Shown in pieces: positions 9,317 through 49,570 of a stretch of DNA of 50,390 nucleotides. The position numbers and the translations under genes are program-made. This DNA comes from Chiloscyllium plagiosum. Lineage: Eukaryota. Every line of letters begins with the position of its first letter. Within the stretch, counting starts at the first letter, position 1. A model generated the notes under the pieces. The model was not told where the DNA came from. It was given only the letters and a program-made list of their open reading frames with translations, and did no database searches. The stretch covers positions 888,832 to 939,221 of the forward strand of contig NC_057719.1 in NCBI RefSeq assembly GCF_004010195.1, in the 5' to 3' direction.

Positions 9317-9586
9317 GTTTGGAGGTGGCGGAAATGATGGCGGATGATACACTGTATATGGAGGTTGGTGGGGTGGTAGGTGAGGACCAGAGGAGTTCTG
9401 TCCTGGTGGCGGTTGGAGGGGCGGGGTTCAAGGGCAGAGGAACGGGAAGTGGAGGAGATGCGGTGGAGGGCTTATGCCTGAAACATCGATTCTCCTGCTC
9501 CTTGGATGCTACCTGACCTGCTGCGCTTTTCCAGCAACACATTTTCAGCTCTGATCTCCAGCATCTGCAGTCCTCACTTTCTCCCC
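9317..9586. mobile_element. Penelope-like ORF fragment (minus, ~9317-9468) joined to an oppositely oriented family-B terminal repeat (~9469-9586)
   Basis: Minus strand reads PLVLTYHPTNLHIQCIIRHHFRHLQ, recalled as a Penelope pre-GIY-YIG region; followed by gcctgaaacatcgattctcctgctcc. Confidence 0.75.
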
Positions 9587-18122: not shown

Positions 18123-18269
18123 CTGCACCAAACATTCAACACAATTAAACCCTGGCCTCAGAATCATCCAGCTTCCTACACTAACAGCAGAGCCCACACC
18201 TCCCAAAAATACTGTCTCCCAGAGAAAACGACAGACCTCTCACTGTGACATCGATAGTGGGAAAACTGG

Positions 18270-20095
18270 TGGGGGGTTTAATATGGGATAAGGGAAACAT
18301 ACACTTATAGAAAAATAAATTCATACTAGCCAGTCAGTGTTGGCTTAGTCAGGGACAGGTCATGGCTGACAAAAGTCATTGAGTTCTTTGACGAGGTGAC
18401 CCAGGCAGTGGGTGAGGGTGGTGCTGTGGATGTTGTATACTTGGACTTTCAGGAAGCAACCGAGAGAGGGTCATGTGTCAGGTTGGTGAACACAGGAATG
18501 GTTTGGGATTGCTGGGTCCTTGGCAGCAAGGATTGGAGGCTCAAAGATAGGATCCAGATGGTGGGTAGAGGTGGGCATTTCTCAGATTGGGGATGAGTTG
18601 ATTGTGGTGTTTTCCAGGGACCCTTGCTTTTTCTGATTTACCTCAAGGATTTGGAGTTGGGGGTTGAGGGTAAAATCTCTAACGTTGCAGATGGCACTAG
18701 GCTGGGGAGAATAGTGAGGATGATGCTGAGGGACTTCAGAGGGACATGGACCAATTGGCCAATGGGCAGACACCTGTCAGATGGATTTCAATGCAGAGAA
18801 ACGGGAGGGGATGGTTAAAAAAACACACACACAGAGACAATACAGGCCTCAATGGGACAACTCTGGGGGGAGTAGAGGATCAGATGGACCTCGGGGATCA
18901 TGTACATGATTCTCTGAAGGTGACCAAGCAAGTTGTAGCAGATGTTAAGTTGGTTTATAGGATCCTTGTGTTTATACACACGGGCATAGAGTAGAAAGGA
19001 AGGAAGTGACGCTACACCTTGACAAATCATTGGGTCAGACCACATTTGGAGCATTGCGTTCAGTTCTGGGCACCTTATTTAAGGAAGGATGTTACTCCCC
19101 ACTTGCCCTGGATGGGGGCAGCTCCAACAACACTCAAGAAGCTTGACACCATCCAGGACAAAGCAGCCGCTTGATTGGCCCCACATCCACAAACACCCAC
19201 TCCCTCCCCCACCGACACTCAGTAACAGCAGTGTGTACCACCTACAAGACCCACTGCAGAAACTCACCAAAGATCCTCAGGCAGCACCTTCCAAACCCAC
19301 GGCCACTTCCATCTGGAAGGATAAGGGGCAGCAGATACATGGGAACACCACCTCCTGCAAGTTCCCCTCCGAGCAACTCATCCTGACTTGGAAATATATC
19401 GCCGTTCCTTCGGTGTCACTGGGTCAGAATCCTGGAATTCCCTCCCTCAGGGCATTGTGGGACAACTGACAGAACACGGTTCAAGTAGGCAGCTCACTCG
19501 ACCTTCTCAAGGGGCAACTAGAGATGGGCAGTAAATGCTAGGCCCAGCCAGCAACACCCACATCCCATGGAGTGAGTTAATTAATTTTAAAAAGCCCTGG
19601 AAAGAGTGCTAAGGGTATTCACTTGAGTGATACCAGCAATGAGGGATTTTAGTACAAGGAACAATTAGAGAGATTGGGCTGATCCTCCTTGGAACAGAGA
19701 CAGTTTAGAAGTGACCTTATTGAGGTGTCCAAAATAATGCACAGTTCTGACAGGGTACAGAAGGATATTCTGTTCCCATTAGGGAGTATGTCAGTAACTA
19801 GGGGTCACGGTTTTGAGATTGTCAGCAAGAGAGCCAGGAGTGAGGTGAGGAGAAACCTCTTCACTCCGAGAGTTGTTCGGTTTTGGGATGCGCTGCCTGG
19901 GAGAGTGAGGAAGGAGGATTCTATCAGAGGTTTCAGAAGAGAGCTGGGTATATGTTGGAAAGGGATGGAGTCAGAGGGTTACGGAGACAGGGATGGGGAG
20001 TGGGACTGGCTGGGTAGACATTTCAGGAGCTGGTACAGGCATGATGGGTCGAATAGCCTCTCCTGTACTGTAACACTCAATGATTCTACAATTCT
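18270..20095 (+). mobile_element. Old CR1 (RT to tail) interrupted at ~19093-19590 by the 3' end of the second LINE family
   Basis: VDVVYLDFQ, FRSDLIEVSKIM, FTPRVVRFWDALP; the insert ends aggggcaactagagatgggcagtaaatgct. Confidence 0.85.
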
Positions 20096-20599
20096 ATTAA
20101 CTGAGAAACACTTATGATCTCCAAACGTGCTACAGATACACAACATCTCTTTTTATTTGGTAAACTACAGTTTTCATCACTAAATGAAGAAGATTTTCCA
20201 GTCATTTGTCTATCGTAGATTTATCGTATAAATCATACATCACTTGGATGTATGATCTAGGACAGGAGGAGGTGTTTCAGCCCCTCAAGTCTGCTCATGG
20301 CTGCTCTGATTGTAATCTCCTATCTTTGTTCCCGTCTTAACCTTTCACCCTCTTGCTCAACAAGAGCCTCACCACTTCAGCCTTAAAACTATTTGAAGAC
20401 CTTCCTTCCATCACTTTTTTCAGGGAAAGTGTTCCAAAGACTAGCAGCCTTCAGGTACAGAGTTATTCTCTCTTCCTTGTTTTCAGTAATAACTTCCAGT
20501 TTGAGATTCTCCGACAACAGGAAAGGTCCTTCCCCCCCCAGCACCACCACCCAGTCAAGACCCTTCAACATCATCTATACTTCAGCCAGAGAGCAATGG

Positions 20600-20830
20600 G
20601 AAATGATGCCCCCCACCCCGACCCAGGTAATGTCCTTGGGACATGCGTTCGAATTCTGCTGCAGCAGATGGTGGAATCTGAATTTAATAAACATCAAAGT
20701 CTAATGTTGGGGGGAAACTATCTGGTTACTAATGTTCTTTCAGGTACGAATCTGCTGTCCTTACATGTAGTTGGTCTACATGTAGTTAACTGTCAGCTGT
20801 GATCAGGGATAATAAATGTGATGTCTGCAT
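20600..20830 (+). mobile_element. Degenerate tRNA-head SINE (family of 40875-41225)
   Basis: gacccaggtaatgtc...gttcgaat...gcagatggtggaat...aataaatg. Confidence 0.65.
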
Positions 20831-21259
20831 AGAGGTGTATGGTACAGGAACAGACCCTTCAGTCCAACTCATCCATGCCAACCAGACATCCTAAATTAAT
20901 CTTGGCCCATATCCCTCTAAACCCTTCCTCCTCATATACCCACCCAGATGCCTTTTTAAATGTTGTAATCATACCAGCCTCCACCACTTCCTCTGGCAGC
21001 TCGTTCCATGCACGTACCACCCTCTGTGTGAAAAAGTTGCCCCTGAGGTCTCTTTTATATCTTTCCCCTCTCACCCTAAACCTATACCGTCTAGTTCTGG
21101 ACTTCCCCACCTCAGGGAAAAGACCTTGTCTATCCTATCCATGACCCTCACGATTTTATAAACCCCTATAAGGTCACCCCTCAGTCTCCGACGCTCCAGG
21201 GAAAACAGCCCCAGTCTATTCGGCCACTCCCTATAGTTCAAACCCTCCAACCCTGGCAA

Positions 21260-21455
21260 TGGTAAAAATCACACCACACCAGGTTATAGTCCAACAGGTT
21301 TATTTGGAAGCACTAGCTTTCGGAGCACTGCTCCTTCATCAGGTGGTGGTGGGCTCTGAAGGCTAGTGCTTCCAATTCGACCTGTTGGACTATAACCTGG
21401 TGTTGTGTGATTTTTTAGCTTTGTCCACCCCAGTCCTACACCGGCCCCTCCGAAT
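21260..21455. mobile_element. Family-A short inverted-repeat element (Penelope-terminal-repeat-like) with ~12-bp target-site duplication
   Basis: Arms caccaggttatagtccaacagg / cctgttggactataacctggtg; TSD caaccctggcaa (21248-21259) / caactctggcaa (21456-21467). Confidence 0.85.
21311..21345 (-). ncRNA. Minimal type I hammerhead ribozyme motif (family A)
   Basis: CAC-CUGAUGA-A-GGAGC(AGU)GCUCC-GAA-AGCU-A-GUG: intact core, 5-bp helix II, palindromic AGCU, CAC/GUG helix I. Confidence 0.8.
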
Positions 21456-21664
21456 CAACTCTGGCAACAGCCTTGTAAATCTTCTCTGAACCCTCTCAAG
21501 TTTCACAAATTCTTTCCGATAGGAGGGAGACCAGAATTGCATGTAGTATTCCAAAACTGGCCTAGCCAACGTCTTGTACAGCCACAACATGACCTCCCAA
21601 CTCCTATACTCAATACACCAACCAATGAATTAACCACTTTCTTCACTATCCTATCTACCTGTGA

Positions 21665-21960
21665 CTTGAATTAAATCAAATTCTACCAACTGCCCTTTGA
21701 ACCCAGGTCTCCAGAACCTTACCTGGGTTTCTGGATGCATAGACCAGCCTTGATATCACCACTCGGCCATTGATTTGCTTTCTTGACCCGCTGCAGTCCA
21801 TGTGCTGTGGGTTGACCCACAATGCCCTTAGGGAGGGAATTCCACGATTCTGACCCAGTGACACTGAAGAAACGGTGATATATTTCCAAGTCAGGATGGT
21901 GAGGGGCTTAGAGGAGAACTTGCAGGGGGTGGTGTTCCCATGTATCCGCTGCTCTTATCA
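21665..21960 (-). mobile_element. tRNA-SINE head fragment plus second-LINE 3' fragment
   Basis: Reverse complements of the 40875-40990 and 45330-45540 motifs. Confidence 0.75.
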
Positions 21961-22074
21961 CAGAATTATAGAGTGTAGACAGATGAGGCCCTTCAGCCCA
22001 TCAAAACTGCACTGCTACCTTCACCAGTCCTACGTTCCTGCACGATGCACATAGCCTTGAATATTGTGATATTT

Positions 22075-22417
22075 CATAGAACATAGAACATGGAAAAATA
22101 CAGCGCAGTACAGGCCCTTTGGCCCTCGATGTCGCGCCGATCCAAGCCCACCTAACCTTCTTTTCTCTAATGAAAACAACCCCAAGTGCCTCAGCCTTTC
22201 CTCATACGATCTTTCTACCATACCAGGCAACATCCTGGTAAACCTCCTCTGCACCCGTTCCAGTGCCTCCACATCCTTCCTATAGTATGGCGACCAAAAC
22301 TGCACACAATACTCCAGATGCGGCCGCACCAGAGTCTTATACAACTGCAACATGATCTCAGGACTCCGGAACTCAATTCCTCTACCAATAAAAGCCAGTA
22401 CGCCATATGCCTTCTTC
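22075..22417 (-). mobile_element. Young CR1 3' fragment with internal deletion
   Basis: LQLYKTLVRPHLEYCVQFWSPYYRKDV; atagaac tail. Confidence 0.93.
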
Positions 22418-22594
22418 AGGATGGACTCTCCTCCTAGATGGTGACAGCCCTGGGTTTGGAAGGTGATCATCTCTCAGGATCTTTGGTAGGTCCTGGCAGG
22501 GTTGATGGGGCTGTAGGCTGTTATGGCAACACAATCAGCGCTGACGGTCAACCCATTTTCAACATATTTCTGATCCTGTGTCATGTTTGGTACA

Positions 22595-22880
22595 AGTGAG
22601 CGGCCAGGCCATTGCAGGGAGCAGGGGAGAGTCAGCCATATTGGTCTGGAGTCACAGGGAAACTGATTGGGGGTGGCAGAGTTTCCTCCCCAAAGGAGAT
22701 TAGTGAACCAGATGGGGTTTTTAATGAAGATTAGCATGGACATCATTGGACTTTTTAATTCCAGATTTTTATTGAATTTAAATTCTGTCATTTGCGAAGG
22801 TAGGATTTGAACCCAGATTACCAGAATATTTCCTGAGTCCGTGTAACGCCTTCAGCAGCAATAACACAATGCTTCCTGAG
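22595..22880 (-). mobile_element. tRNA-head SINE (family of 40875-41225)
   Basis: Reverse complement of the shared central motif (attagtgaaccagatggg, ggatttgaaccc). Confidence 0.75.
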
Positions 22881-22959
22881 GACTTCCTCCATCTAAATAA
22901 CATACACCTCCTCTATTCCTCCTGCCAAAGTGCATCACCTCGCATGCTTTACACACTAT

Positions 22960-23520
22960 ATTCCATTTGTCAGACTTTGGCCAAATGGAATGTTATTTAT
23001 TGCAAGAGGAATGCAATAAAACATAGGAATGTCCAGCTGCAGTTCTCCAAAGTGTTGGTGAGACCACATTTGGAACAGTGTACAGTATTGCTCTTCAGAA
23101 AGGATCTAAACACGTTTGAGATCATTCAGAGAAAGTTCACTTGACTGACAGCATGCATGGGGAGAGATTATCTCCAAAGAAAAGACTGTGCCTGTGCCCA
23201 CTGGAGTTTAGAAAACTGGGAGGTGGTTTTCACTGAAGGTGACACACAGAGTGGGAGATTTCACAACAAGAAAATTTCCCATTAAATTCCAGGTTCTGCC
23301 GTAAGTGGAGATGAGGAGGATTACTTTCTCCCTGCAAGAACTCTGTGATATCGAGACTGGTGGAGGCAGGGTCACCAAAAACCTTAAAAGCAGATAGATT
23401 CTTCTATAGTGAGGAAGTCAAAGGATATTGGGGTTGGTGAGAGTGGAGGTCACAATCAGACTAGACGTGACTCTCACTGAGCAGACTCGAGAGACTGAAT
23501 GGCCTACTCCTGGCCCTAAT
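22960..23520 (+). mobile_element. Old degenerate CR1 3' end
   Basis: KVLVRPHLEQC; tgaatggcctactcct tail. Confidence 0.75.
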
Positions 23521-23587
23521 TCATCTGCTCGCACATAGATGTACTCACGTTACCAACTCCACCTGCACCACACTCATATCCAAACCA

Positions 23588-24050
23588 GTGCTGCCCCTGT
23601 CCTGGGACTGTTTGATAGAGGACAGTGTAGAGGGAGCTTTACTCCATATTCAATCCCGTGCTGTCCCTGTCCTGGGCATGTTTGATGGGGGACAATGTAG
23701 AGGAAGCTTTATTCTGTATCTAACCCCATGCTGTCCCTGTCCTGGGAGTGTTTGATGGGGGGACAGTGTAGAGGGACCTTTACTCTGTATCTAACCCTGT
23801 GCTGTCCCTGTCCTGGGAGTGTTTGATAGAGGGACAGTGTAGAGGGAGCTGTACTCTGTATTTAACCCTGTGCTGTCACTGTCCTGGGAGTGTTTGATGG
23901 GGACAATGCAGAGGGAGCTTTACTCTGTATCTAACCCTGTGTTGTCCCTGTCCTGGGAGTGTTTGATAGAGGGACAGTGTAAAGGGAGCTTTACTCTGTA
24001 TTTAACCCTGTGCTGTCCCCGTCCTGGGAGTTTTCGATGGGGACAGAGTG
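23588..24050. repeat. ~69-70-bp tandem repeat, ~6.5 copies (tgctgtccctgtcctgggagtgtttgatggggacagtgtagagggagctttactctgtatctaaccc)
   Basis: Direct reading. Confidence 0.95.
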
Positions 24051-25319
24051 GGGTCTCCTGATTGCGGGGCGAGTGTGGCTTCAGTGGTGAAGAGATGGTG
24101 AGTCCTAAGTTGGTGGGTCTGGAGCAGACGGTGGCGAGGGGAGGGGAGTCCTCCTTGAGTCTTGGTTCTGTCATGGACTTGGTTGAAAAGAATTCTGAAG
24201 TTTTCATTTCTTTATTTCCTAATTTATTCCTACGATCAGTAAATGCTGGACTTCTTATTGCTTTATTTTCCTAACTTTTATCCCCAAAGAATTTGTTCTT
24301 TAGAATCTGTTCCTAGGGACCTTTGTACCTAAGATGGTGCAGTATTGTAAAGTTTTGACTGTATCTATTTGACAAAAAAATCTAATTCTAACCAGACAGT
24401 ATAGAGAGAGCTTCGTTTTCCATTTAAAAGAGTAGAAGAGTACAATTTTAATGAAATTGGCCCAATAATGATTTGTGTTTAGAGTTGAGTAGTGAATAAT
24501 CTCTGAGAATTCAGGCCAGAAGAAATGAGAAACAACTTGGAAAATGAGAATTGCTCTGGATTTCTGGGGTAATGGTGCCCCCTGGTGTTGAAAGTGGGAG
24601 GCAAAATTGTTCAAAATTCATTCAATTTCCTCTCGATCAATGAGCACCGGTCTCTCAAATCTGGGTTTCCCTCCGGCCAACAAAAGCTTTGCAAGATCTG
24701 GCCATCCAGAATGACCAGTGGATCTTGAACTGGAAGCCCACGCAGTGGATCCCCAGCAGCCGATTGCAAACTGGGATCCCAGGAAACAGAATGGATTCGA
24801 GGTGATTTGTGATCCTGATGTCTCACTCGGGTGACATTGCGCACCTTCTGGTTGGTTTGATCTGAGGAGGTTAATCCCACAAACGTGGCAGGATTTCATC
24901 GGCTGCATTGGGGTCGGCTGTCACCCTGGGCTTGGTGGGACTCATTTCTCTGAGTGGCAGAGAGCGAGAGGGTCTGAATCTCACGGCCTTGACAGCTCAA
25001 CGTTACTGGTGGGCCGCTGCTACACCCATTCAAACAGAGCTGCCATGGGAAAGGGCAGGTTCTGATAATGAACCATTTCACCCAGTGACTGGGCTGTGCT
25101 CCTGGTCCAGCAGGCTGGATCACTCTCACATCTCATCATTACCCTCTTCCCCCTTGGTCTCAGGGTGTGCGCTGTGCGGCTCCCAGCTGCTGGGAGGGAG
25201 CTCTGTACAGACTCCCAGTCAGGGCACACACACTACAGACAGGGAGTCAGATAGAGTCCCAACATCAGCTTTGGGAAGAGCCACACCCAGATTTGGAATT
25301 TATGCTGCAAGGAGAACTA

Positions 25320-25450
25320 TAACGGCAGGAATAGCAACAGGAATGGGAGCAGGAATGGGAACAGGAACAGGAGCAAGAATGGGAGGAGGATTGGGAATAG
25401 GGATAGGAGCAGGAATGGGAACAGGAATGGGAGCAGGAATACAAAACAGA
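25320..25450. repeat. Purine-rich hexamer repeat (GGAATG/GGAACA/GGAGCA)
   Basis: Direct reading. Confidence 0.9.
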
Positions 25451-25459
25451 GTCTTGGGA

Positions 25460-26690
25460 TAAGGAGGGAGCATTTTCAGGATGGGAACCTGTAACTAGTG
25501 GAGCGTCACATGGGTCAGTGCTGTAATTATTTCCATTAATGCCTTGGATGAGGAAAGTGAGTGTGCTATAGCCAAGTTTGGGAATGACACAAAAGTAGTT
25601 GGGAAGGCAATTGGTGAAGATAATACAGAGAGTCTGCAGAGGGATACAGACAGGTTAATGGAGGGGGAAAAAACCTCACATGTGGAATCTAATGTGGGGA
25701 AATGTGAAATTACACACTTTGGCAGTGACACAAAAGTAGTTGGGAAGGCAATTGGTGAAGATAATACAGAGAGTCTGCAGAGGGATACAGACAGGTTAAT
25801 GGAGGGGGAAAAACCTCACAAGTGGAATCTAATGTGGGGAAATGTGAAATTACACACTTTGGCAGGAAGAATAGAGGAGCTGAATATTGTTTAAATGGAA
25901 AAAGTCTGCAGAAAACTGCAGCAGCGAGAGATTTGGGAATCTTGGTGCATTAATCACAAAAACACCAGCAACCAAGTTCAGTGGGTGATAGGGAAGGCAA
26001 ATGGAATGTTGGCCTTTATTTCAGAGAGAATGGAAAATAAAAATAGCAAAGTTTTGCTTATACTGTACAAGGCTCAGGTCAGAGCACAGCTGGAATACTG
26101 CGAACAGTATGGGCCCTGTATCTAAGGAAAGATAGACTCACATTGGAGGCAATCCAGAGAAGGGTCCCTAGGCTGTTACTGGTACAGAGGGATATAGTTT
26201 TTAATTCCCATATCACTGGGTAGTCCAGCGTTTATTGTCCATCCTTAGTTGCCCTGAGGAGACAGAGGTTGAGGAGGTTGGGGCCTGTACTCACTGCAGT
26301 TTAGAAGAATGAGTGGTGACCTTACTGAAACAAACTGACAAGATTCTTAGGGGACGTGACAGGGGAGATGTGGAGAGGATGTCTCCCCTTGTGGGGGAGA
26401 GTCTAGGACCAGAGGGTATCATCTCAGAATAGGGGGTCACACATCTCATATGGAGAGGAGGAAGAATTTCTCCTCTCTGAGGGGAGTGAATCTGTGGAAT
26501 TCTTTCCCACAGTGAGCCATCGAGGCTGGGGCATTCAGGATATTCAAGGCTGAGAGAGACGGATTTTTAATCAGTAATAGGATCAAGGGTTAAGGGGGAA
26601 AGGCAGGAAAGTGGAGTTGAGGATGATCAGATCATGGTGGAGCAGACTCGATGGGCTGAATGGCCTACTGCTGCTCCTTTGTGTTATGAT
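25460..26690 (+). mobile_element. CR1 RT-to-tail fragment with ~140-bp tandem duplication (~25585-25865)
   Basis: IAKFGNDTKV, NVGKCEITHFG, LYKAQVRAQLEYC; tail gatgggctgaatggcctact. Confidence 0.88.
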
Positions 26691-27329
26691 CTTTCAGCCT
26701 GCTCCACCTGATCGATAGGATCACACCTGACCCCCTTGATCAATGCCATTGCCCACCATATCCTCATGTCCATCAATTCCCAAAAACCCATCCACAGCGA
26801 CTGACCAGCCACAGCTCTCTGGGCTACCAAATTCCAACAAATGGCAACACTCCGAGTGAAAAGATTTCTCCTCCCCTCAGCCCTAAATGGCTGACCCATT
26901 ATTCCATGGCCGATGTTTCTGGGCTCTCAGCATTTCAGCATCTACCGTGTCACCCAGGAGATGTCCGGAATTTTCAATAAGATCCTGTATCCCAGAGAAT
27001 ATTAAGCCAAACTGGGTGGAATGTCGAGCTGAAAGAATATAGTCTCAAGGACATGGCAACGTTTGTTTGGCAGGAGGAGCTGGGAGGGTTGGGGAACCCA
27101 ATGTTGGAGATCCTTGTGATGGACGTAAGCCCATGGAGGGGTTGAAGTGCCCCCGAGGCAGGGAGCTGTCCTCAAGGAAGGGCAACAGAATATGTTAAGA
27201 GGGAGTGGAATTTCAGACAAGGCTAGAAGGCCATGGTGTTGGTTTCCTCAATGTTCAGCTACAGAAAGATCATACTTTCCAAATTCTCTGCACCTCACAA
27301 GTGTTCCAATACGCACAACTTTTATAGAG

Positions 27330-27835
27330 ACATCGATTGGCATGACGGCGAATACCCTTGCCAACTTTTATAGGTGCGCCATTGAGAGCATTCTGTCTGA
27401 ATGTATCACTCCCTGGTATGGTAACTGTACCGTTCAAGATCGGAGACAGTTACAGAGAGCGATGAACTCGGCCCGGGCAATCACGAAGGCCAACCTCCCA
27501 TCTGTAGAATCCATCTACCAGGCCCCGCTGTCAAGGAAAGGCCGCCAGCATTCTCAAAGATCCATCCCACCCTGGGAATGTTTATCTACAACCTCTACCA
27601 TCGGGGAGAAGGTACAGAAGCCTGAACACACGCACCAGCTGGTTTCGGAACAGTTTCTACCGGAATGTTGTTAGAATACGGAATGGACTTTCAAACTCTT
27701 AACATTTGTTTTTGCCGCTGTTTGCCTATTATTTACTATCTATGCTACTTAACTCTGGAATCTGCCTGTGTGGCTCACAAGACAAAGATTTTCACTGTGC
27801 CTCAGTACACGTGACAATAAATTCAATTCAATTCA
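27330..27835 (+). mobile_element. Rex1/Babar-type LINE 3' end
   Basis: TLANFYRCAIESILSECITPWYGNC; tail ttttcactgtgcctcagtacacgtgacaataaattcaattcaattc. Confidence 0.85.
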
Positions 27836-28935
27836 ATCATACAGCACAGAAACAGGCCCTTCGGTCCACCTCTCCATACTGACCAGGTATCCCAAACAAA
27901 ACTGTCCAATTCACCTGCATTTGGCCCATATCCCTCCAAACCTTTCTTAACCATGTACCTATCCAACTGTCTTTTAAATGCTATAACTGTACCAGTCTCC
28001 ACCACTTCCTCTGGCAGCTCATTCCATACATGTATCACCCTCTGTGTGAAAAAGTTACCCCTTAGGGCTCTTTTATAACTTTCTGTCTCTCACCCTAAAC
28101 CTATGCCCTCTAGTTCTGAATTCCTCTAGCCTGGGAAATAGATCTTGGTTGTTCACCCTATCCATGCTTCTCATGATCTTAAAAACCTCTACAAGGTCAC
28201 CCCTCAGGCTCCGATGCTCCAGGGAAAAAGTCCCAGCCTATCCAGCCTCTCCTTGTAACTCAAACCTTCCAGCCCCAGTAACATCCTAGTAAATCTTTTC
28301 TCTCCAATTTAATAATATCCTTCCTGCAGCAGGGCAACCAGAATTGAACACAATATCCCAAAAGTGGCCTCACCAATATCCTACGCAGCTGCAACATGAT
28401 GTCCCAACTCCTGTACTCAATGCACTGACCAATAAAGGAAAACATGCCAAACACCTTCATCACCACCTTGACTACCTGCAACTCCACTTTCAAGGAACTA
28501 TAAACCTAAGCCCCTGGTCTCTCTGTTCAACAGCACTCCCCAGGGCCCTCCCATTGACTGTGTGAGTCCTGCCCTGGTTTGTCTTACCAAAATGTAACAC
28601 CTGGCATTTGTCTAAATTAAACTCCATCAGCTACCCCTCAACCCATCAGCCCATCAGATCAAAATCCCATTGTACCTTGAGATAACCTTCTTTACTGTTC
28701 ACCACGCCTCCAAGTTTGATATTATCCACAAACTTACTCACCATGCTTCCCATATTCTCACACAAGTCATTTTTCTAAATGACAATTAACAATGGACCCA
28801 GCACCAATCCTTGAGGCGCACCACTAGTCACAGGCCTCCATCCTGAACGATAACCCTCCAGCACCACTCTCTGCCTTCTATCATCAAGTCAATTTTGTGT
28901 TCATTTGGCTCACTCTCCCTGGATCCCATGTGATT
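27835..28935 (-). mobile_element. CR1 RT-to-tail fragment
   Basis: VWNELPEEVVE; ILVRPLLGYCVQFW. Confidence 0.9.
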
Positions 28936-29154
28936 GAACTTCCTGTCATTCACTCTGAAGTATTGTGTGGGGGAAAAAAACAGACTCATATTTATACAGC
29001 ACCTTCTGCAGTATGGGGCATGTTAACTGTGTAGGTGGACTGGGAAAATCAGGATGGTGGGGGATCCCAAGAAAAGGGAATTGATGGAATGTCTACACAA
29101 TGGTTTTTTAGAGCAGTTTGTGGTTGAGGCCACTAGGGAACAGGCAATTCTGGA

Positions 29155-29465
29155 TTTGATTAGATTCCCTACAGTGTGGAAACAGGCCCTTCGGCCCAAC
29201 AAGTCCACATCAACCCTCCGAAGAGCAATCCACCCAGACCTATTTCCCTCTGACTAATGCACTGAACACTATGGGCAGTTTATCATGGCCAATTCACCTG
29301 ACCTGCACATCTTTGGACTGTGGGAGGAAACCGGAGCACCCGGAGGAAACCCACGCAGACACGGGTAGAACGTGCAAACTCCACACAGTCAGTCGCCTGA
29401 GGCGGGAATCAAACCCGGGTCCCTGGTGCTGCGAGGCAGCAGCGCTAACCACTGTGCCACCGTAC
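29155..29465 (-). mobile_element. HE1-type SINE nested in a CR1 endonuclease region
   Basis: Reverse complement of the HE1-type sequence at 11372. Confidence 0.93.
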
Positions 29466-30014
29466 CACCAGTGCCAATTTGGAGATGTGTAGCATGGCAG
29501 ACTTGATTAGGGAGCTAAAGGTGAAGGAACCTCTAGGGGGCAGTGACCATAATATGATAGACTCCACTCTGCAGTTTGAGAGGGAGAAGCTGGAATCCGA
29601 TGTAACATTATTATTACTGAGTAAGGGAACTACAATGGCATGAGGGAGGAGCTGGCCAGGGTTGATTGGAAGGGGAGCCGAGCAGGAAAGATGGTGGAGC
29701 AGCAATGGCAGGAGTTTCTGGGGATAAATCGGGAGGCACAACAGAAATTTGTCCTAAGGAAGGTTTGGAGGGATATGGGCCAGGAGCAGGCAAATGCGGC
29801 TAGTTTAGTTTGGGAACGTGGTCAGCACGGTCTGGTTGGACCAAAGGGTCTGTTTCTGTGCTGTGTGACTTTCTGACTCCATCTTTCTTGTGAACCTCCT
29901 CTGGACTCACTCCAACACCAACACATCCTTCCTTAGATATGGGACCTAAAACTGCTCACAATATTCCAAATGTGGTCTAACTAGAGCCTTATACAGCCTC
30001 AGCAGTGTATAGAC

Positions 30015-30315
30015 ACATAGAATCCCTATGGTGTGGAAGCAGACACTCAGCCCATCAAGTCCACGCTGACCCTCTGAGCACCGTCCCATCTGGCTATCCT
30101 ATTCCAATAGCCGTGCATTTCTCCATGGCTAATCCACCCAGCCTGCACATTTCTGGGTACTATGGGCAATTTCCCGTGGCCAACCTGCACATCTTTGGAC
30201 TGTGGGAGGAAACCGGAGCACCCAGAGGAAGCCCAGACAGTCACCCAAGGCTGGAACCAAACCCAGGTCCCTAATGCTGTGAGGCATCAGTGCTAAGCAT
30301 TGAGCCACCATGCCA
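30015..30315 (-). mobile_element. HE1-related SINE variant
   Basis: ctgcacatctttggactgtgggaggaaaccggagcacc core. Confidence 0.85.
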
Positions 30316-30928
30316 TTCCTCTGCAATATCTGCTGCTCTTGTACTCTGGTCCTCTTGAAATGACTTGTAAATAACCCAGGGATGAAGGCCTTGTCATATG
30401 AGGGGTGGTTGAGGATCCTGGGTCTGTACTCGATGGAGTTCAGAAGGATGAGGGGTGTCTGATTGAAATGTACAGAATACTGAGAGGCCTGGATAGAGTG
30501 GACATGGAGAAGATGTTTCCACTGATGGGAGAGACTGGGAGCCGAGGGCACAGCCTCAGGGTGAAGGGACAACCCTTTGGAACTGAGAGCAAGAGGAATT
30601 TCTTCCGTCAGAGGGTGGGGAATCAGTGGAACTCAGAGGGCTGTGGAGACCAAGTCATTGAGTGTATTTAAGACAGAGGTAGGTCGGTTCCTGATTGGTA
30701 AGGGTGTCAAGAGTTACAGGGAGAAGGCAGGAGAATGGGTTGCAGAAACATATCACGCCATGATCGGATGGTGGGGCAGAGTCAATGGGCAGAATAGCCT
30801 AATTCTGTTCCTATACTTTATGATCTCATGTCTTGTCACGCCCCTCAAAAAAGGTTCAGTGAGCTCAGACACAAGTTATCAGTGACTTGAAAGTGGAGTC
30901 GCAGGTAGATAGGATAGCCTTTCATCCA

Positions 30929-31050
30929 CGGCTTTTGCCCGAGACGTCGATTTTCCTGCTCCTCGGATGCTGCCTGACCTGCTGTGCTTTCCCAGCACCA
31001 CTCTGATCTAAACTCTGGTTTCCAGCATCTGCAGTCCTCACTTTTGCCTC
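30929..31050 (+). mobile_element. Family-B Penelope-terminal-repeat fragment
   Basis: ggcttttgcccgagacgtcgattttcctgctcctcggatgctgcc. Confidence 0.8.
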
Positions 31051-31407
31051 AGAGGGATATGGGCCGGGTGCTGGCAGGTGGGACTAGATTGGGTTGGGAT
31101 ATCCGGTCGGCACAGACGAGTTGGACCAAGGGGTCTGTTTCCGTGCTGTACATCTCTATGACTCTGTGACTGTTAGGATCCAAAGCAGGGGACCTAGGGA
31201 ACAGGAACCACTGCCTCTGCCTCACATTCTGTACTTTTCTCACTGTCCGTTCAATCGTTCATGTAAAGGGCTTGATTTGAGGATCACACACTCTCCTGCA
31301 GTTTAATAATATTCTTGTGCCATTTAAAAGTAACCCAAATGCGGTACACGAATTCTGTTAACTTGAAGATCTAGTGTTGGGTTTATGTACAGCTAAACTC
31401 ATTTATA

Positions 31408-31618
31408 GATTAGAGTAAAGAGTGTGGTGCTGGAAAAGCGCAGCTGGTCAGACAGCGTCTGAGGAGCAGGAGAATCAACGTTTCGGGCAAAAGCCCTTCA
31501 TCAGGAATGTCTGATTTTGCCCGAAATGTGATTTTCTTGCTCCTTGGATGCTGCTGTGCTTATCCAACACCACAATGTCAAACCTGATCTCCAGCATCTG
31601 CAGTCCTCACTTTCACCT
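31408..31618. mobile_element. Family-B inverted-repeat element with flanking ctcatttataga duplication
   Basis: Minus arm ~31411-31507, plus arm ~31511-31617; ctcatttatagatt is present on both sides (~31399 and ~31617). Confidence 0.85.
31473..31508 (-). ncRNA. Minimal hammerhead ribozyme motif (family B)
   Basis: AUUC-CUGAUGA-A-GGGC(UUUU)GCCC-GAA-ACGU-U-GAUU. Confidence 0.75.
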
Positions 31619-32012
31619 CATTTATAGATTGTGTACAATATGCATACACAGCCTGTTCCTGGAGGATGACAGTGCAGAGAGCCTGGGGCCTGTGAGTTAC
31701 TATTATGTTGAATCCTTAAAGGGACATTGCACCAAAGGTGGGTGCAGGATGACACCTGGAAATGGAGCTAAATCACAAAATGAGCTGAGGGAACACAGGA
31801 GAAGGAGTCTCAGACTGAAGGTATGTTTTATTCCTGTGCTGATTTGGCAATCGATCAGTGCAGATGGCTAAAGTGACATCTCAAGCCATGGATCCAATCT
31901 GTATACGAGCTGACCTCATTTCTGGGGCTACATTGTAGTACCCCCATTCTGCCCCAAACTCTCTCATATGGAATGATGTGGAGTCCTGCCCTGTGGGTGG
32001 AGGGACACATAC

Positions 32013-32064
32013 CTTTGAAAGACCTGGGTTCTTTGTAACGCTTGACGTTGAACCATCAATTCTC
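32013..32064 (-). CDS. CCDC170-like gene, exon C (52 nt; (R)RIDGSTSSVTKNPGLSK)
   Basis: tctctctgtctcttcacag|GAGAATT...TCAAAG|gtatgt. The first base completes the AG codon from exon B; ends in phase 0. Confidence 0.8.
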
Positions 32065-32309
32065 CTGTGAAGAGACAGAGAGAACATGAATGAGGTGGAG
32101 AGAGCTGGAGAAGGATGTATCAGTGGCGCTATCAGTGTAGGCTCTCCCACCACTCAGCCTCCTCCCTCCAATGCACCAATCTTTTCTTTCTCAGAACACC
32201 AGGTTAAAGGTCACGGACCTGAAATGTTAACTCTGTTTCTTGCTCCCCAAATCCTGTCAGACCTGCTGAGCATTTCCAGCATTTTCTGTTTTTCCTTCTT
32301 TCCTCGTCA

Positions 32310-32975
32310 ATCTTCCCTCCATCATAAGGTCAGAGGTGGGAGTGTTCACTGATGATTGCACAATGTTCAGCACGATTCATGACTCCTCAGGTACTGAAGC
32401 AGTCCATGTTCAAATGCAACAAAATCTGGACAATATCCAGGCTTGGGCTGACAAGTGGCAAGTAACATTTGTACCACACAAATGCCAAATAGTGACCATT
32501 TCAACAAGAGACAATCTAATGGCACAGTGGCTCAGTGGTTAACACTGCTGCCTTGCGGCACCAGGGACCCAGGTTGGATTCCAGCCTTGGGAAACTGTCT
32601 ATCTGGAGTTTGCACACTCTCCCCGTATCTGCGTGGGTTTCCTCCGGGTGCTCTGGTTTCCTCCCATATTCCAAAAATGTGCAGGTTAAGGTGGATTGCC
32701 CATGCTAAATTACCCATAGTGTTAGATGCGTTAGTCGGAGGGAAAATGGGTCTGGGTGGGTTACTGTTCGGAGGGTTGGTGGGAACTTGCTGGGCTGAAG
32801 GGCCTGTTTCCACACTGTAGAGAATCTATTCTAACCATCGCCCTTTGACCTTCAATGGCGCTATTATCACTGAATCCCCCGCTATCATAATCTGGGGTTT
32901 ACTATTAAACAGAAGCTCAACAGGACCAGCCGTATCCAGGACTATATGAACAGGTCAGAGGCTGGGAATCATATG
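32310..32975 (+). mobile_element. Second-LINE RT fragment interrupted by an HE1-type SINE (~32519-32830, +)
   Basis: VFTDDCTMFSTI...NIQAWADKWQVTF; the SINE is flanked by tctaa-like ends. Confidence 0.88.
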
Positions 32976-33235
32976 GTGAGTGAGCTTGGCCAGTGTCTAG
33001 GAGCTGAGGCTGGGTGAGCTGTGCACTTGCACAAAGACAGATGCATGATCTCAGTGAGGATGAGCATGGAACCTCAGATGCACACATCAGGGGCTACGAT
33101 CCCAGAAACCACAGCCTCTAACTGGCAGACAACTGGTGGCAGGAAGGGGTTTTGCTGCCTCATTGGGGGAGGAGGTTGGGGGTGGGGTGGGGTGGGGGGT
33201 TATATATTTGGACTTGAGCTTGCTCCAGTTCTCAC

Positions 33236-34254: not shown

Positions 34255-34337
34255 TACCTGATGGAGGAGCAGCACTCCCAAAGCTTGGACTTCCAAATGA
34301 ACCTGTTGGACTATAACTTAGTATTGTGTGATTTTAA
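34255..34337 (+). mobile_element. Family-A single arm with degenerate hammerhead motif
   Basis: cctgatggaggagcagcactcccaaagct...cctgttggactataac. Confidence 0.75.
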
Positions 34338-34604
34338 ATGAGGTTAACTACTGAACACATTCACACGAGTCTGCTAAAACAATCATTAAACTGGAAAAAC
34401 ATCTATAATGTCGCAGGAGACAAAAAAAATTGGAAAGATTTCAGTACAAACATTAGAAAAGTATTCAAACTATTCATTTTATCTCACATTATCCTCAGGA
34501 ACATTGAAGATTTCAGTGATGTTTTCCCTCTAGCTCAACACCAACTCCCCCTTGCTCAGACATGCACAGCAGCAATCAGCTTCCTTACCGTCAGTTTCTG
34601 CACT

Positions 34605-38800: not shown

Positions 38801-40050
38801 CCCCTCTGGTTCAGGTGAAGACCATCCTGTTTGTAGCGGTCCCACCTACCCTACAATGAGCCCTAATTATCCAGGAAACAAAAACTCTCCCTCCTGCGCC
38901 ATCCCTGTAGCCACGTATTCAACTCCTCTCTCTCCCTATTCCTTGTCTCGCTAGCACGTGGCACGGGTAACAAATCAGAGATAACAACTCTGTCTGTCCT
39001 CGCTCTAAGCTTCCATCCTAGCTTCCTGAATTTCTGCCTTAAATCTCCATCTCTCTTCCTACCTATATCATTGGTGCCTATGTGGACCACAACCTGGGGG
39101 CTGCTCCCCCTCCCCCTCAAGGACCCCGTAAACATGATCCAAGACATCACGAACCCTGGCAACTAGGAGGCAACACACCAACCATGAGTCTCGCTCCTTC
39201 TCACAGAACCTGGTATCTGTCCCCCTAACTATGGAGACCCCAAAGACTACTGCTCTGCTCCTCTTCCCCCTTCCCTTCTGAGCAACAGGGACAGGGACAG
39301 ACTCTGTGCCAGAGCCCTGTGCCCCATTGCTTTCCCCTGGTAAGTCATCCGCCACAACAATATCCAAAAAGGTCTACGCCATAGGGCATCCCTGCACTGC
39401 CTGCTGGTTCCCTTTCCGTCCCCTGACTATAGCTGAAAAATGTGTTGCTGGAAAAGCACAGCAGGTCAGGCAGCATCCAAGGAGCAGGAGAATTGATGTT
39501 TCGGGCACTATCCCCTGACTATAACCCATCTACCTTTTTTCCTGTACCTGAGGTTACCTCCCTGTAACTCCTCCCAATAACCCCCTCCGCCTCCCGAATA
39601 ATCCGAAATTCATCCAGCTCCAGCTCCAGTTCCCTAACGCGGTTTCCGAGGAGCTGGAGTTGGGTGCACTTCCCGCAGATGCAGTCAGCAGGGACACTCA
39701 TGGTGACCCTTACCTCCTACAATCTGCAGGAGGAACGTTCAACTGTCCTAACCTCCATTCCCACTGTTCTGAATTCCCAAACAGACTATATTAAAAAAAA
39801 CTAGCAACCTTACCAAATCGGCGTTCTGGACCTTGTTTTTTTTTTGGTTAGGGGAGGAGGATGGGTGGGAGACACTACCTAAGTAGTGTTTCGGGTAAAG
39901 CAACTGGCCAAATATATAACCTCACTTACACAGCTGTCCCATGCCCGCTCCTGTTTAGCGTGCACTCCACCTATACGTGAGGTAAGCTTTTAAACAATTA
40001 TTTTACCTTCCCGGCAGCTCCCTGGTCCTTGCTCTCGCTGCTCCCTCTGC
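35813..40050 (-). mobile_element. Near-full-length, disabled CR1/HER1-type LINE: 5' UTR, ORF1 (Cys motif, leucine zipper, SGNH esterase-like), ORF2 (APE endonuclease + RT), 3' UTR
   Basis: CICGKCTQLQLL..RVRELELELD; VVFGVSIVRG and [47 protein letters not shown]. Many stops and frameshifts. Confidence 0.95.
39432..39510 (-). mobile_element. Family-B insertion in CR1 ORF1 with perfect 13-bp TSD
   Basis: tcccctgactata at 39419-39431 and 39511-39523. Confidence 0.9.
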
Positions 40051-41225: not shown

Positions 41226-41773
41226 AAAGCAGTGGACCCAGCACCAATCCTTGTGGCACACGGCGGTCACAGGCCTCCAGTCTGAGTTAGGGAAATATCT
41301 CAAGGGTCAAGTTCTAAATTGGGGCAAGGTGATTATTGGTGGAATTAGACAGGAGCTTTCTGGGGTTGATTGGAATAGTCTGTTTGGAGGCAAAGGGACC
41401 TCCGGCAAGTGGAAGGCCTTTAAAAGTAGTGATGCCAGTATTCCTTTGCCCAGGTTGATGTGCATCGATGTGAAAAGGGCTGTAATGTCAAAGGAGACCA
41501 TTATTTCATCCTCTTTTATCTGGGCGTCTTTGATGGTCTTCAGGAATTAACATCGACCTGGCCAAAGAAACACTGGCATCGCTACAAGGAAAACCAGGAC
41601 CACAAATACCAGACAGCACCAACTTCATCAGCAAAGACAACATCCTCAAGCTAGTGGACCTGTGCCTCACCACCCACTTCACATTCAATAACAAAACCTA
41701 CAAACAAGTCAACAGAACACCTATGGGATCACCAATATCAGGGCTCATAGTGGAACCAGTAACGCAGAGACTT

Positions 41774-41897
41774 GAAGGGCTTTTGCCCGAAACGTCGATT
41801 TTGCTGAAGCTCCTCGGATGCTGCCTGAAATGCTGTGCTCTTCCTGCACCATTGATCCAGAATCTGGTTTCCAGCATCTGCAGTCATTGTTTTTACC
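41774..41897 (+). mobile_element. Family-B fragment inserted inside the Penelope RT
   Basis: gaagggcttttgcccgaaacgtcgatttt...gtcattgtttttacc. Confidence 0.85.
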
Positions 41898-42845
41898 AAG
41901 CTGTCCACCCGTCAATCCAATTGGGTCCGCTACGTAGATGACACATTTGTCATCACAAAACGGTACAAATTCGAGGAAACATACAACACCATCAACAATA
42001 TCCTGACAGGCGTAAAATTCACAAAAGAGGAGGAGTAAGACAACAGACTCCCATTCCTAGAGTGACATTTGAACATAAGGTTAACAGAGAGCTTTAAACC
42101 AGCATCTACAGAAAAACAACAAACACAGACCAAATAGTTACCTTCACAAGCAATCATCCCAACACCCACAAACGGAGCCAAATCACACTGCAACACCCAA
42201 GAACGACAAAAAAACAGAAGAAAATTATCTATACAGCGTTTTCCAGAAAAACGGGTACCCAATAAACACAATCTGCCGATTCCTCAGAAACAAACCCAAG
42301 CAAACAGACACAACACAACTGAAAGCTATAGCCACATTACCTTACATCAAAGGCATATCAGAAATAACTTCCAGACTACTCAGACCCCTTGGCATCATGG
42401 TAGCCCACAAACCCACCAACACACTTAAACAGCGACTAATGAACCTAAAGAATCCATTAGATATTACCAACAAAACTAACATCATTTACAAAATACCATG
42501 CGAGAACTGTAAAAAACACAACATTGGACAAACTAGCAAGAAACTAGCCACCAGGATACATGAACACCAAGACTAGCCACCAAAAAGACGCAACCCATTA
42601 TCACTAGTTTCTATGCATACAAAGAAGGATACCACTTTGACTGGGATAACACACACACATCCTAGGACAGGCTAAACAAAGACACAAATCAGAATTCTTA
42701 GAGGCATGGCATTCTAACCAGAAGTCCATCAATAAACACATTGGTTTAGATCCTATCGACCTCCCCTGAAAAAAAAAGAAATGACATCACCCACCTTAAG
42801 AAACCAAGCGAGATGGGACATTCCACCAGTGCTTCACCAGGGACT

Positions 42846-42888
42846 CTCACTGATGATGTTGCCTAGTGGTGGTGACGAAACATCTGAA
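42846..42888 (+). ncRNA. Hammerhead-like motif (family C) in the Penelope terminal repeat
   Basis: CUCA-CUGAUGA-U-GUUGCC(UAGUGGU)GGUGAC-GAAACAUC-UGA. Confidence 0.7.
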
Positions 42889-46600: not shown

Positions 46601-47027
46601 GGGTTTATGATCTGAATGTTACAATACAATGATCAGTGTTACCCAAAATTGGTTGTCATGCATTTGATCCACTTCACTCCTAAATTACCTACATCAGTTT
46701 TGTCCCTGTCTTACTTCCTCTTTGTTAATTACTCAAAAAACAAGTCTCACACTCCTGCACTGACCATGATTGGAGCCTCATATAGAGAGAGAGACTGAGT
46801 ACATAAGAGGGCAAGAGTGACCTTGGTGTAATGTCAAAGTCAGAACCTGTCACACTGCCTCTCTCTCACAGCACTGCCACAGAAATGTTATCCTCAATTT
46901 GTGTTGAAGTGTTTGGACTGGGACCTGAAGGAAATGATGATTAAGAATGTCCCTGTGACAGTGAAAAGTGAGCACCAGACTCTGAAGATGACAGGCTGTA
47001 CCAAAAGCTAACGGCACTATCACACTG

Positions 47028-47148
47028 GAAGGGCTTTTGCCCGAAACGTCGATTTCGCTGCTCCTTGGATGCTGCCTGAACTGCTGTGCTCTTCCAGCAC
47101 CACGAATCCAGAATCTGGTTTCCAGCATCTGCTGTCATTGTTTTTACC
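47028..47148 (+). mobile_element. Family-B fragment (helix II + GAAACGUC; 5' core missing)
   Basis: gaagggcttttgcccgaaacgtcgatttcgctgctcc. Confidence 0.85.
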
Positions 47149-47339
47149 AAACAGAAAGACAACTTATCCAGCCTTAGCTACAAGAAAAGTGAGGAAAGGT
47201 TACTGGAGTACCTGATGAATCAGATCTGAAGATGTCACATGCAAGCTGCACCAAAGCCAACAATCAGCAACAGTGTACCATGACATGACAGAAGTTTTCG
47301 TGGTGAGGAAAGCAAGAAAGAATGAGAGGTCAGTAGCAA

Positions 47340-47536
47340 TTTGGAGGGGCCGGTGTTGGACTGGGATGGACAAAGTTAAAAATCACACAACACCAGGTTA
47401 TAGTCCAACAGGTTTAATTGGAGGCACTAGCTTTCAGAGCACCTAACCCTAACTACCTGATGAAGAAGCAGCACTCCAAAAGCTAGTGCTTTCTAATAAA
47501 CCTGTTGGACTATAACCTGGTGTTGTGTGATTTTTA
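47340..47536. mobile_element. Family-A inverted-repeat element, opposite orientation to the 21260 copy
   Basis: Same arms; degenerate hammerhead cctgatgaagaagcagcactccaaaagctagtg at ~47456-47488; gaggtcagt on both flanks. Confidence 0.85.
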
Positions 47537-48649: not shown

Positions 48650-49570
48650 CCATAAGATATAAAGGCAGAATTAAGCTATTCAATCCATTGAATCAATCAG
48701 ATTCCCCTCATCCTGCTAAACCCCATCGAGTACAGACCCAGAGTCCTCAACCACCCCTCATCTGACAAACCCTTCAGCTCTGGGAGCCTTTCTTGTGAAC
48801 CTCTTCTGGGTCCCCTCTAATACCAAAACATCCTTCTTTAGATATGGGACACAAAACTGTTTGCAATATTCCAAATGTAGTCTGACCAGAGCTTTATCCA
48901 GCCTCAGCAGTACATCTCACCCTCTTGAGATGAATGCTAACATTTCATTTGCCTTCCTAACTGCCAACTGAACCTCCATGTTAACTTGAAGACAATCCTG
49001 AACTAGAACTCCCAAGTCCCTTTGTGTTTCAGATAACCGAATGCCTCTAATCTTCCTACCAAAGTGCATAACCTCACAGTTTCCCACATTGTATTCTATC
49101 TGCTAATTGTTTGCCCACTCTCTAGCCTGTCTAAGTCCTACTGCAGCCTCCCTGTTTCCTCAACATTACCTGTCCCCATCTTTACATCATCTGTAAACTT
49201 AGTAACAATGCCCTCAGTTCTTTTGTGCAGATCATTAATGTATAATGTGAGTAACTGTGGTCCCAACACTGATCCCCATGGAGCTCCACTAGCCACGGCT
49301 GACATCCTGAAAAAGACATTGTTATCCCCACTCTCTGCCTTCTGTCAGTCAGCCAATCCTCTATCCATGCTGAAAAATGTGTTGCTGGAAACGCGCAGCA
49401 GGTCAGGCAGCATCCAAGGAGCAGGAGAATCGACGTTTTGGTCATGAGCCCTTCTTCAGGAATCCTCTATCCATGCCAGTACCTTGTCTCAGAACACTAT
49501 GGGCTTTTATCTTATTCAGCAGCCTCCTGTGCAGCACCTTGTTAAAGGCCTTCTGGAAATCCAAATAGGT
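48650..49570 (-). mobile_element. Degenerate CR1, interrupted by a family-B insertion (49371-49460) with perfect 16-bp TSD
   Basis: YLDFQKAFNKVLH; aatcctctatccatgc at 49355-49370 and 49461-49476. Confidence 0.88.

Follow-up and report, generated by a model that had tools for sequence, protein, structure and literature searches.

The window, a 50,390-nt stretch of the Chiloscyllium plagiosum genome, contains a 196-bp insertion at 21260-21455 that is bracketed by 12-bp direct repeats (21248-21259 and 21456-21467 on the plus strand), which are 11/12 identical and form the target site duplication (TSD). The left TSD lies within an older interspersed repeat, and the first 2 nt of the right TSD also equal the last bases of the tail of the insertion. 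A paralogous copy of the host repeat provides empty-site evidence: window positions 20844-21253 and 21466-21629 align to 27846-28275 and 28280-28436, where the flanks are contiguous. The insertion is built of inverted arms that share 63 nt (21264-21326 and 21353-21415) at 90% complementarity, which bears out the original prediction of a ~195-bp insertion with a 12-bp TSD and two inverted arms. The hairpin fold has a z-score of -11.3, and 0/200 shuffles were equally stable.

Positions within the repeat are numbered from the hammerhead core nucleotide C3 as position 0 (window 21342, minus strand), so that +29 is the first base past the predicted cut. The minus-strand arm (21263-21352) extends from ~5-10 nt before C3 to ~+80 and lacks the upstream TATA box. 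The plus-strand arm (21353-21455) begins at +16, within the 3' strand of hammerhead helix II, and continues through the end of a ~40-nt tail; its hammerhead is incomplete because the arm begins there. The arms are therefore asymmetric, with the tail present only in the plus-strand arm and the 5' half of the hammerhead only in the minus-strand arm. In full-length copies of the family (family A), the tail ends at an ORF start codon. A fold-back DNA transposon (MITE) was rejected as an identity for the insertion: its inverted repeats do not extend to both ends, one side having the ~40-nt tail beyond them.

The insertion is located in an intron of a CCDC170-like gene (18132-33234, minus strand; placed between mapped exons, ends approximate). 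The flanking exons map to 33381-33235 and 18131-17880 on the minus strand, and one window exon matches a protein of Chiloscyllium punctatum at 94% identity and a CCDC170-like protein of Stegostoma at 82%. The exons lie on the minus strand on both sides of the insertion, so the hammerhead-bearing arm is sense to the host pre-mRNA. Of the claim that a hammerhead lies sense to this intron, the orientation holds, and the ribozyme fold is not predicted to form in the window copy. A weak tblastn match (51%), made only by the Chiloscyllium protein, at 32007-32123 on the minus strand, may be an extra exon or an artefact.

The minus strand reads CAC-CUGAUGA-A-GGAGC(AGU)GCUCC-GAA-AGCU-A-GUG exactly as claimed, and its read-out gives a minimal type I hammerhead at 21345-21311. 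Helix I pairs 21345-21343 with 21313-21311, the core occupies 21342-21336 and is followed by an extra A at 21335, helix II spans 21334-21322, and the GAA is at 21321-21319. The palindromic helix III strand (21318-21315) is followed by A17 (21314), and the predicted cut falls after CUA, between 21314 and 21313. The features of minimal type I hammerheads of Penelope-like elements (PLEs) are all present (core, extra nucleotide after A9, G10.1-C11.1, palindromic helix III, short helix I), in agreement with the original classification; the portion of the metazoan PLE survey covered here differs in having C17 rather than the A17 found in this motif (PMC4209133). The bare core pattern occurs at chance level in the window (3 found vs 1.79 expected). 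The full descriptor, consisting of a helix II of at least 4 bp, a palindromic helix III and helix I, had 0 matches in 50 shuffled windows, and a 25-nt motif including the core has 9,570 exact genomic matches vs 0 for the reversed control. An Infernal-type check was negative: no hammerhead model in Rfam matched the insertion at E up to 10. A microRNA precursor was discarded, since the match to Rfam MIR860 scored 57.8 bits vs a gathering score of 89 and reflects a generic long hairpin.

Within family A, the hammerhead core and stems are invariant at the lineage level, with variation located on loop II and unpaired sites. Neighboring bases outside the hammerhead are equally invariant, so the invariance of the stems is no proof of selection. 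The proposed covariation of helix II had a divided outcome: no compensatory change was found within family A, and a second family, family B, has a different helix II and a different helix III palindrome with pairing kept, so that covariation is between families only. The family B hammerhead repeat at 31481-31504 (minus strand) has a GGGC/GCCC helix II and an ACGU palindrome and represents a second Penelope-type family. Related pieces lie near 9464-9580, 30930-31051, 39431-39507, 41770-41899, 47024-47150 and 49369-49463, and a family B ORF fragment is located beside a gap at about 9340-9470.

Genomic copies were used to identify the source of the family A repeat. In 30 loci picked by the hammerhead motif, the sequence extends upstream of the motif by as much as 700 nt, where it reaches the end of an ORF. 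With the endonuclease-like ORF end as query, 18/20 loci have a hammerhead arm 343-1243 nt downstream on the same strand; one of the remaining loci has the tail only and one has neither hammerhead arm nor tail. At the other end of the ORF, 4/30 loci picked by the N-terminal part have the hammerhead unit immediately before the ORF, and its tail stops at the ATG. The ORF is thus flanked on both sides by the hammerhead repeat with the tail running into the ATG, which identifies the repeat as the terminal repeat (pLTR) plus tail of a coding PLE. A reverse transcriptase (RT) domain is recognized by PF00078 (E=2.1e-10 on L071 and 6.9e-06 on L091). The lead to a GIY-YIG endonuclease came from ESM Atlas matches at 0.96 to clusters with 31-34% PF01541, and the CCHH motif of a C-terminal GIY-YIG-like endonuclease is seen by eye in the translations. 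Pfam gave no match on the isolated endonuclease piece or on two window fragments, and a PDB sequence search on the endonuclease domain returned nothing useful. Most translated copies have a CX4CxxC linker before the endonuclease, and a CX2-5CxxC linker marks Neptune and Nematis elements in the part of the PLE literature covered (PMC8557442).

The layout found here, with a hammerhead-bearing pLTR on both sides of the ORF, a 30-40-nt tail and an inverted 5' copy, is that of endonuclease-bearing (EN+) PLEs. The insertion is almost certainly the pLTR stub of a coding PLE. Mobilization by a Penelope-like element, and the link to a Penelope terminal repeat on which that proposal depended, are both upheld by the RT and GIY-YIG-like ORF and by the hammerhead arms found downstream of it. 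The parent appears to be of Neptune type judging from its linker and domain features. The open-access papers listed on Penelope hammerheads in sharks and on Penelope/Neptune elements in Chiloscyllium included no description of family A. Elsewhere in the window, decayed Penelope-like ORF fragments at 41534-42880 (RT-like and GIY-YIG-like by eye, with no Pfam match) are followed by a hammerhead-like motif at 42850-42880 that possibly belongs to a Poseidon-type family.

A survey of the first 90 of 11,388 exact tail matches, chosen regardless of upstream sequence, was used to define the geometry of insertion; all lie in the first 33 Mb of one contig, and the sample is biased to young copies. Outer arm ends may be off by one base owing to mixed reference origin, and inner ends were recomputed. 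An adjacent inverted arm was present in 65/90 loci (3 more with outer ends far upstream were excluded), and 58/65 of these arms have an outer end at +75 to +92, and so lack the tail. A permissive search run with no control found a TSD in 56/90 loci, with a mode of 12-13 bp. Arm lengths are continuous from <40 to >800 nt, the longest reaching into the 3' UTR. Mini fold-backs like the window copy account for 49/58, and these 49 show 45 distinct pairs of inner ends; two same-strand hammerhead cores within 1.2 kb occur in 1/90 loci. The tail-less arm extends at least 8 nt further 5' than the tail-bearing arm in 30/58 fold-backs, as it does in the window copy, while the tail is in the other arm only, which means that neither arm was simply copied from its partner. 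A GT-length variant agrees between the arms in 28/33 pairs and differs in 5/33, as if most insertions came from one source RNA and some perhaps from two; agreement in loop II was set aside, since the helix II palindrome makes it hard to assign loop II to an arm. The window holds a second family A mini fold-back at 47339-47536 (locus L006), which is 88% identical, oppositely oriented and has its own junction, and a solo tail-less arm with a decayed hammerhead core at 34256-34344 (plus strand).

The arms terminate in a narrow zone just 5' to the hammerhead. Of 75 arms that reach -4, 47 stop by -12 (0.108 per nt; 2.0 expected), and the stop rate from -13 to -200 is 0.0046 per nt, ~23-fold lower. 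Before this peak the rate is already climbing, at 0.013 per nt in helix II and 0.036 per nt in the core. Inverted arms end most often at -9 (10 arms) and not at -8, and the tail-less arm of the window copy ends between -5 and -10, within the stop peak. A TATAAAT begins 30 nt (43 contexts) or 32 nt (28 contexts) upstream of -8 in 71/74 contexts. An extra G precedes 6/9 of the arms that end at -8, a weak signal (p=0.04) of the kind that copying of a cap would leave. Splicing to an acceptor at the 5' border of helix I was excluded as the source of these ends because there is no AG at -4 to -12. Truncation at the hammerhead cut site was likewise rejected: only 1/155 arms ends at +27 to +31, vs 3.2 expected. 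That hardly any arms end at the cut site indicates that the templates were mostly uncleaved. At several junctions (L109, L126, L156, L162, L169 and window 21345-21352), the filler often repeats the last template bases (GAT, GGT and CCA runs), as though the enzyme had stepped back at the end of the RNA and copied the same bases twice.

Raw reads from a poly(A) single-cell run, ~2% sampled and 3'-biased, were aligned to a full-length copy. Of 2,423 aligned reads, 339 have a poly(A) loose end at +57 and 418 have one at +60, mostly sense, 12-15 nt past an A(A/U)UAAA signal. Only 2 genomic matches have an A-run at the poly(A) position, and the read ends are likely real tails, although a small number of loci, or host genes, may be their source. 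In the window copy the AAUAAA signal occupies minus-strand positions 21299-21304, in the same sense as the host gene, and the poly(A) sites, seen for the family and not tied to this copy, are equivalent to window 21287 and 21284. The family signal is heavily used in the poly(A) reads (L188:680-683 equivalent), and thousands of copies could supply host 3' ends. Within the ~2% of the 3'-biased run sampled, no reads were tied to the junction or flanks of the window copy or to the nearby CCDC170-like exon. Nor did these 3'-biased poly(A) reads show a pile-up of read starts or ends, so the matching RNA ends anticipated by the original prediction were not recovered from them. The poly(A) site precedes both points at which the arms start (~+85 and ~+121), so a polyadenylated mRNA would hold these start points only in its 5' pLTR. 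No matching account of Penelope pLTR polyadenylation, transcription start or strong-stop was evident among the papers listed, and parts of the model outlined below may already be foreshadowed by Drosophila studies of pLTR promoters and poly(A) sites.

These features are probably best explained by a mechanism in which both strands of a staggered cut prime on uncleaved element RNA and both cDNAs run off its 5' end. A 12-nt staggered cut would allow each target strand to prime reverse transcription on the 5' pLTR of an uncleaved Penelope RNA, one beginning at the tail end (~+120, the start codon) and the other at ~+78 to +90, and both cDNAs would run off a likely capped 5' end. Transcription would start near -8, a position deduced from DNA through the pile-up of arm ends and the TATA box, and the pLTR would be laid out like U3-R-U5. 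The resulting strong-stop-like cDNAs of ~95 and ~130 nt would match the stub lengths, and their 3' ends would be joined with microhomology or short filler. A Poseidon element provides an in vitro analogy from another clade: in the portion of that study covered, two internal RT starts bracket the tail, both strands are cut and extended, and unprocessed RNA is used (PMC11167929). Some caveats attach to the run-off model. The start site comes from DNA only, the 3'-biased reads having given no start pile-up; the rise in stop rate through helix II and the core fits some stalling; a tail at the 3' pLTR could come from read-through transcripts; and the agreement of 28/33 pairs in the GT variant, together with an insertion with U6 sequence in both arms (L218, described below), also fits copying of one arm from the other.

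Stalling of RT, or its falling off, at a folded hammerhead or hammerhead dimer on a long RNA of the same Penelope origin would also pile up ends in this region. The climb of the stop rate over helix II and the core before the peak favors this reading, some junctions lie inside the helix II palindrome (L100, L104 and L128), and the 3'-biased reads gave no direct RNA sign of a transcription start near -8. However, the peak comes after the whole motif has been passed, the stop rate falls ~23-fold beyond -12, the peak lies 30-32 nt behind the TATA box, and 6/9 of the arms ending at -8 have the extra G. Stalling as the main cause of the pile-up is therefore considered unlikely.

Self-priming, in which a single cDNA folds back or an antisense template is used to make the inverted arm, was proposed for rotifer Penelope elements (PMC3846280, in the part covered). 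The 28/33 arm pairs that agree in the GT-length variant exceed the about 19 expected, both arms of L218 carry U6, and palindromic junctions occur, all of which are compatible with this route from the same Penelope origin. It does not account for the sequence that each arm has and the other lacks in 30/58 fold-backs, the 5/33 pairs that differ in the GT variant, the fixed outer end of the tail-less arm near +78 to +90, or the U6 chimeras, which are sense-strand products. As a general source of the inverted arm, self-priming is judged improbable.

The original reading, a non-autonomous retrozyme-like fold-back family that is transcribed, self-cleaved as a dimer, circularized and re-inserted by Penelope proteins, draws on the many ~195-210 bp copies with similar outer ends and an intact hammerhead and on the reported derivation of non-LTR retrozymes from pLTRs (bioRxiv 10.64898/2026.07.22.740005, in the portion covered), but it is largely refuted and retains very little probability, because the arms are the terminal repeat of a coding element, the 45 distinct end pairs in 49 mini fold-backs argue against a master copy, arms vary continuously in length and reach as far as 800 nt into the 3' UTR, same-strand tandems occur in 1/90 loci, ends lie off the cut site (1/155), the stub lacks a promoter, and its hammerhead is predicted to be sequestered by the other arm.

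Evidence bearing on ribozyme activity came from chimeras between U6 RNA and the pLTR. A gapped pattern that allowed joins from ~+4 to +34 found one locus, L217, in which the 3' half of U6 is joined exactly at +29; this U6 half matches Rfam at E=3.1e-08, below the gathering score. A DNA search with the L217 chimera as query, which is biased to the same join, added 19 more loci entries. Among these, L218/L219 (G000:C30:18156162-18156279) is a single insertion with both arms joined to U6 at +29. L222/L223 (G000:C31:9507363-9507616) and L226 were found via U6 alone and are joined just past the family B cut site, as judged by eye. The other U6 copies among those shown are not joined to hammerhead repeats, and a second U6 pattern search found no further chimera. 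All the chimeric loci seen (4/4) are joined at the predicted scissile bond, which supports the CUA cut predicted from the motif. In L218/L219 and in L222/L223 each of the two arms is a U6-pLTR chimera, which suggests that one RNA molecule can yield both arms. On the inverted side of L217 (1060-1200), a piece spans the tail and the first ORF codons, pointing to priming downstream of the tail as well, and L135 has a complex arm similar to it.

Hammerhead cleavage leaves a 5'-OH. In the portion of the U6/LINE-1 work covered, RtcB joins the 2',3'-cyclic phosphate ends of U6 to RNA with a 5'-OH (PMC6789731). Since U6 is joined exactly at the predicted scissile bond and RtcB needs a 5'-OH, the ribozyme of the parent element likely cuts its own RNA after CUA in vivo; the evidence is specific, though indirect, and the number of chimeras is small. 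The U6/LINE-1 chimeras made by RtcB are alike in that the 3' end of U6 is joined to a retroelement RNA that is then retrotransposed; they differ in having variable L1 join sites, whereas the 4 chimeric loci here share one predicted bond (PMC6789731, as far as that account was covered). The covered part of the PLE hammerhead paper offers no evidence for in vivo cleavage (PMC4209133), and the U6 chimeras point to such cleavage here.

A role for the hammerhead can be suggested only tentatively, and it is somewhat doubtful: it may excise a dead end, with the cleaved mRNA being circularized so that RT can pass the 5' end. A capped mRNA would run from 8 nt before the 5' hammerhead to the poly(A) site ~30 nt past the 3' cut. 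RT could begin only near the mRNA 5' end, and linear uncleaved RNA would give mini hairpins. Cuts in both pLTRs would leave a 5'-OH and a 2',3'-cyclic phosphate for a host RtcB-type ligase to close into a circle, and the enzyme would pass the circle junction and write more-than-unit copies, with the U6 chimeras as a mis-ligated intermediate. The ~37% of arms that pass the stop (28/75) might then derive from circles, from template jumps across R, or from read-through RNA. This circularization reading extends a proposal found in the covered part of PMC4209133.

The window copy was analyzed by fold prediction. Helix II has a predicted pairing probability of 0.006 and helix I one of about 0, and in the predicted fold of the insertion the 3' half of the hammerhead is paired to the other arm. 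A hammerhead-competent fold costs +20.5 kcal/mol in the whole insertion vs +4.5 for the arm alone, and helix III needs a second hammerhead copy. In the host pre-mRNA the antisense arm would be made first and would mask the ribozyme. The stub lacks the TATA box, which makes it a likely dead end as a source, and the folding model indicates that the window copy is likely inert both as a ribozyme and as a source element. The AAUAAA is partly unpaired in the fold model, which makes intronic polyadenylation a more plausible host effect of the sense arm than ribozyme cleavage, with the window copy as a candidate.

The insertion is a minimal Neptune-type Penelope insertion with a known layout. EN+ PLE insertion units consist of a 5'-truncated inverted copy plus a one-sided 30-40-bp tail (PMC8557442 and PMC3846280, in the portions covered), and they share with the insertion the head-to-head inverted pLTR, the one-sided tail into the ORF start, a TSD of ~9-13 bp and the pLTR hammerhead. 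The arms described here differ from the units in those portions in being cut down to the pLTR, with 5' ends piled behind a TATA box; neither a pile-up of arm ends nor a poly(A) site internal to the pLTR is described in the portions covered. The model for the Poseidon element PAc of the green anole is alike in having two RT starts that bracket the tail, the use of both strands and an uncleaved RNA, but PAc belongs to another clade and its ORF starts inside the hammerhead, whereas the ORF here starts at the tail end; the part of the paper covered reports no RNA-seq ends at the hammerhead cut site and does not address run-off at the RNA start (PMC11167929). Non-LTR retrozymes, as presented in the portions covered, are head-to-tail tandem repeats with at least two complete hammerheads that are expressed as circles (PMC7229834; bioRxiv 10.64898/2026.07.22.740005). 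They resemble the insertion in being short, non-coding and pLTR-related with a type I hammerhead, but the insertion is head-to-head, has one complete hammerhead and has no shared master junction.

Minus-strand strong-stop DNA of retroviruses and LTR elements is primed just inside the 5' end of the RNA and runs off at the cap, in a U3-R-U5 layout whose repeat spans transcription start to poly(A) site. The mechanism proposed for family A would work likewise and differs from retroviral strong-stop in implying no tRNA primer, integrase or RNase H; the cut target DNA would act as primer and the stubs would integrate directly.

The value of the insertion is that of a fossil record, the element itself being likely inert. 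It touches the questions of how PLEs make inverted and tandem copies and what the hammerhead does in vivo, which stand open in the covered portions of PMC8557442, PMC4209133 and PMC11167929. The coordinates that family A offers for a start site, a poly(A) site, two RT starts and a cut site are exact and can be tested, and the family also bears genomic signs of ribozyme cutting in cells. On the host side, its sense arms bring a ready-made poly(A) signal that is used in RNA by copies of the family.
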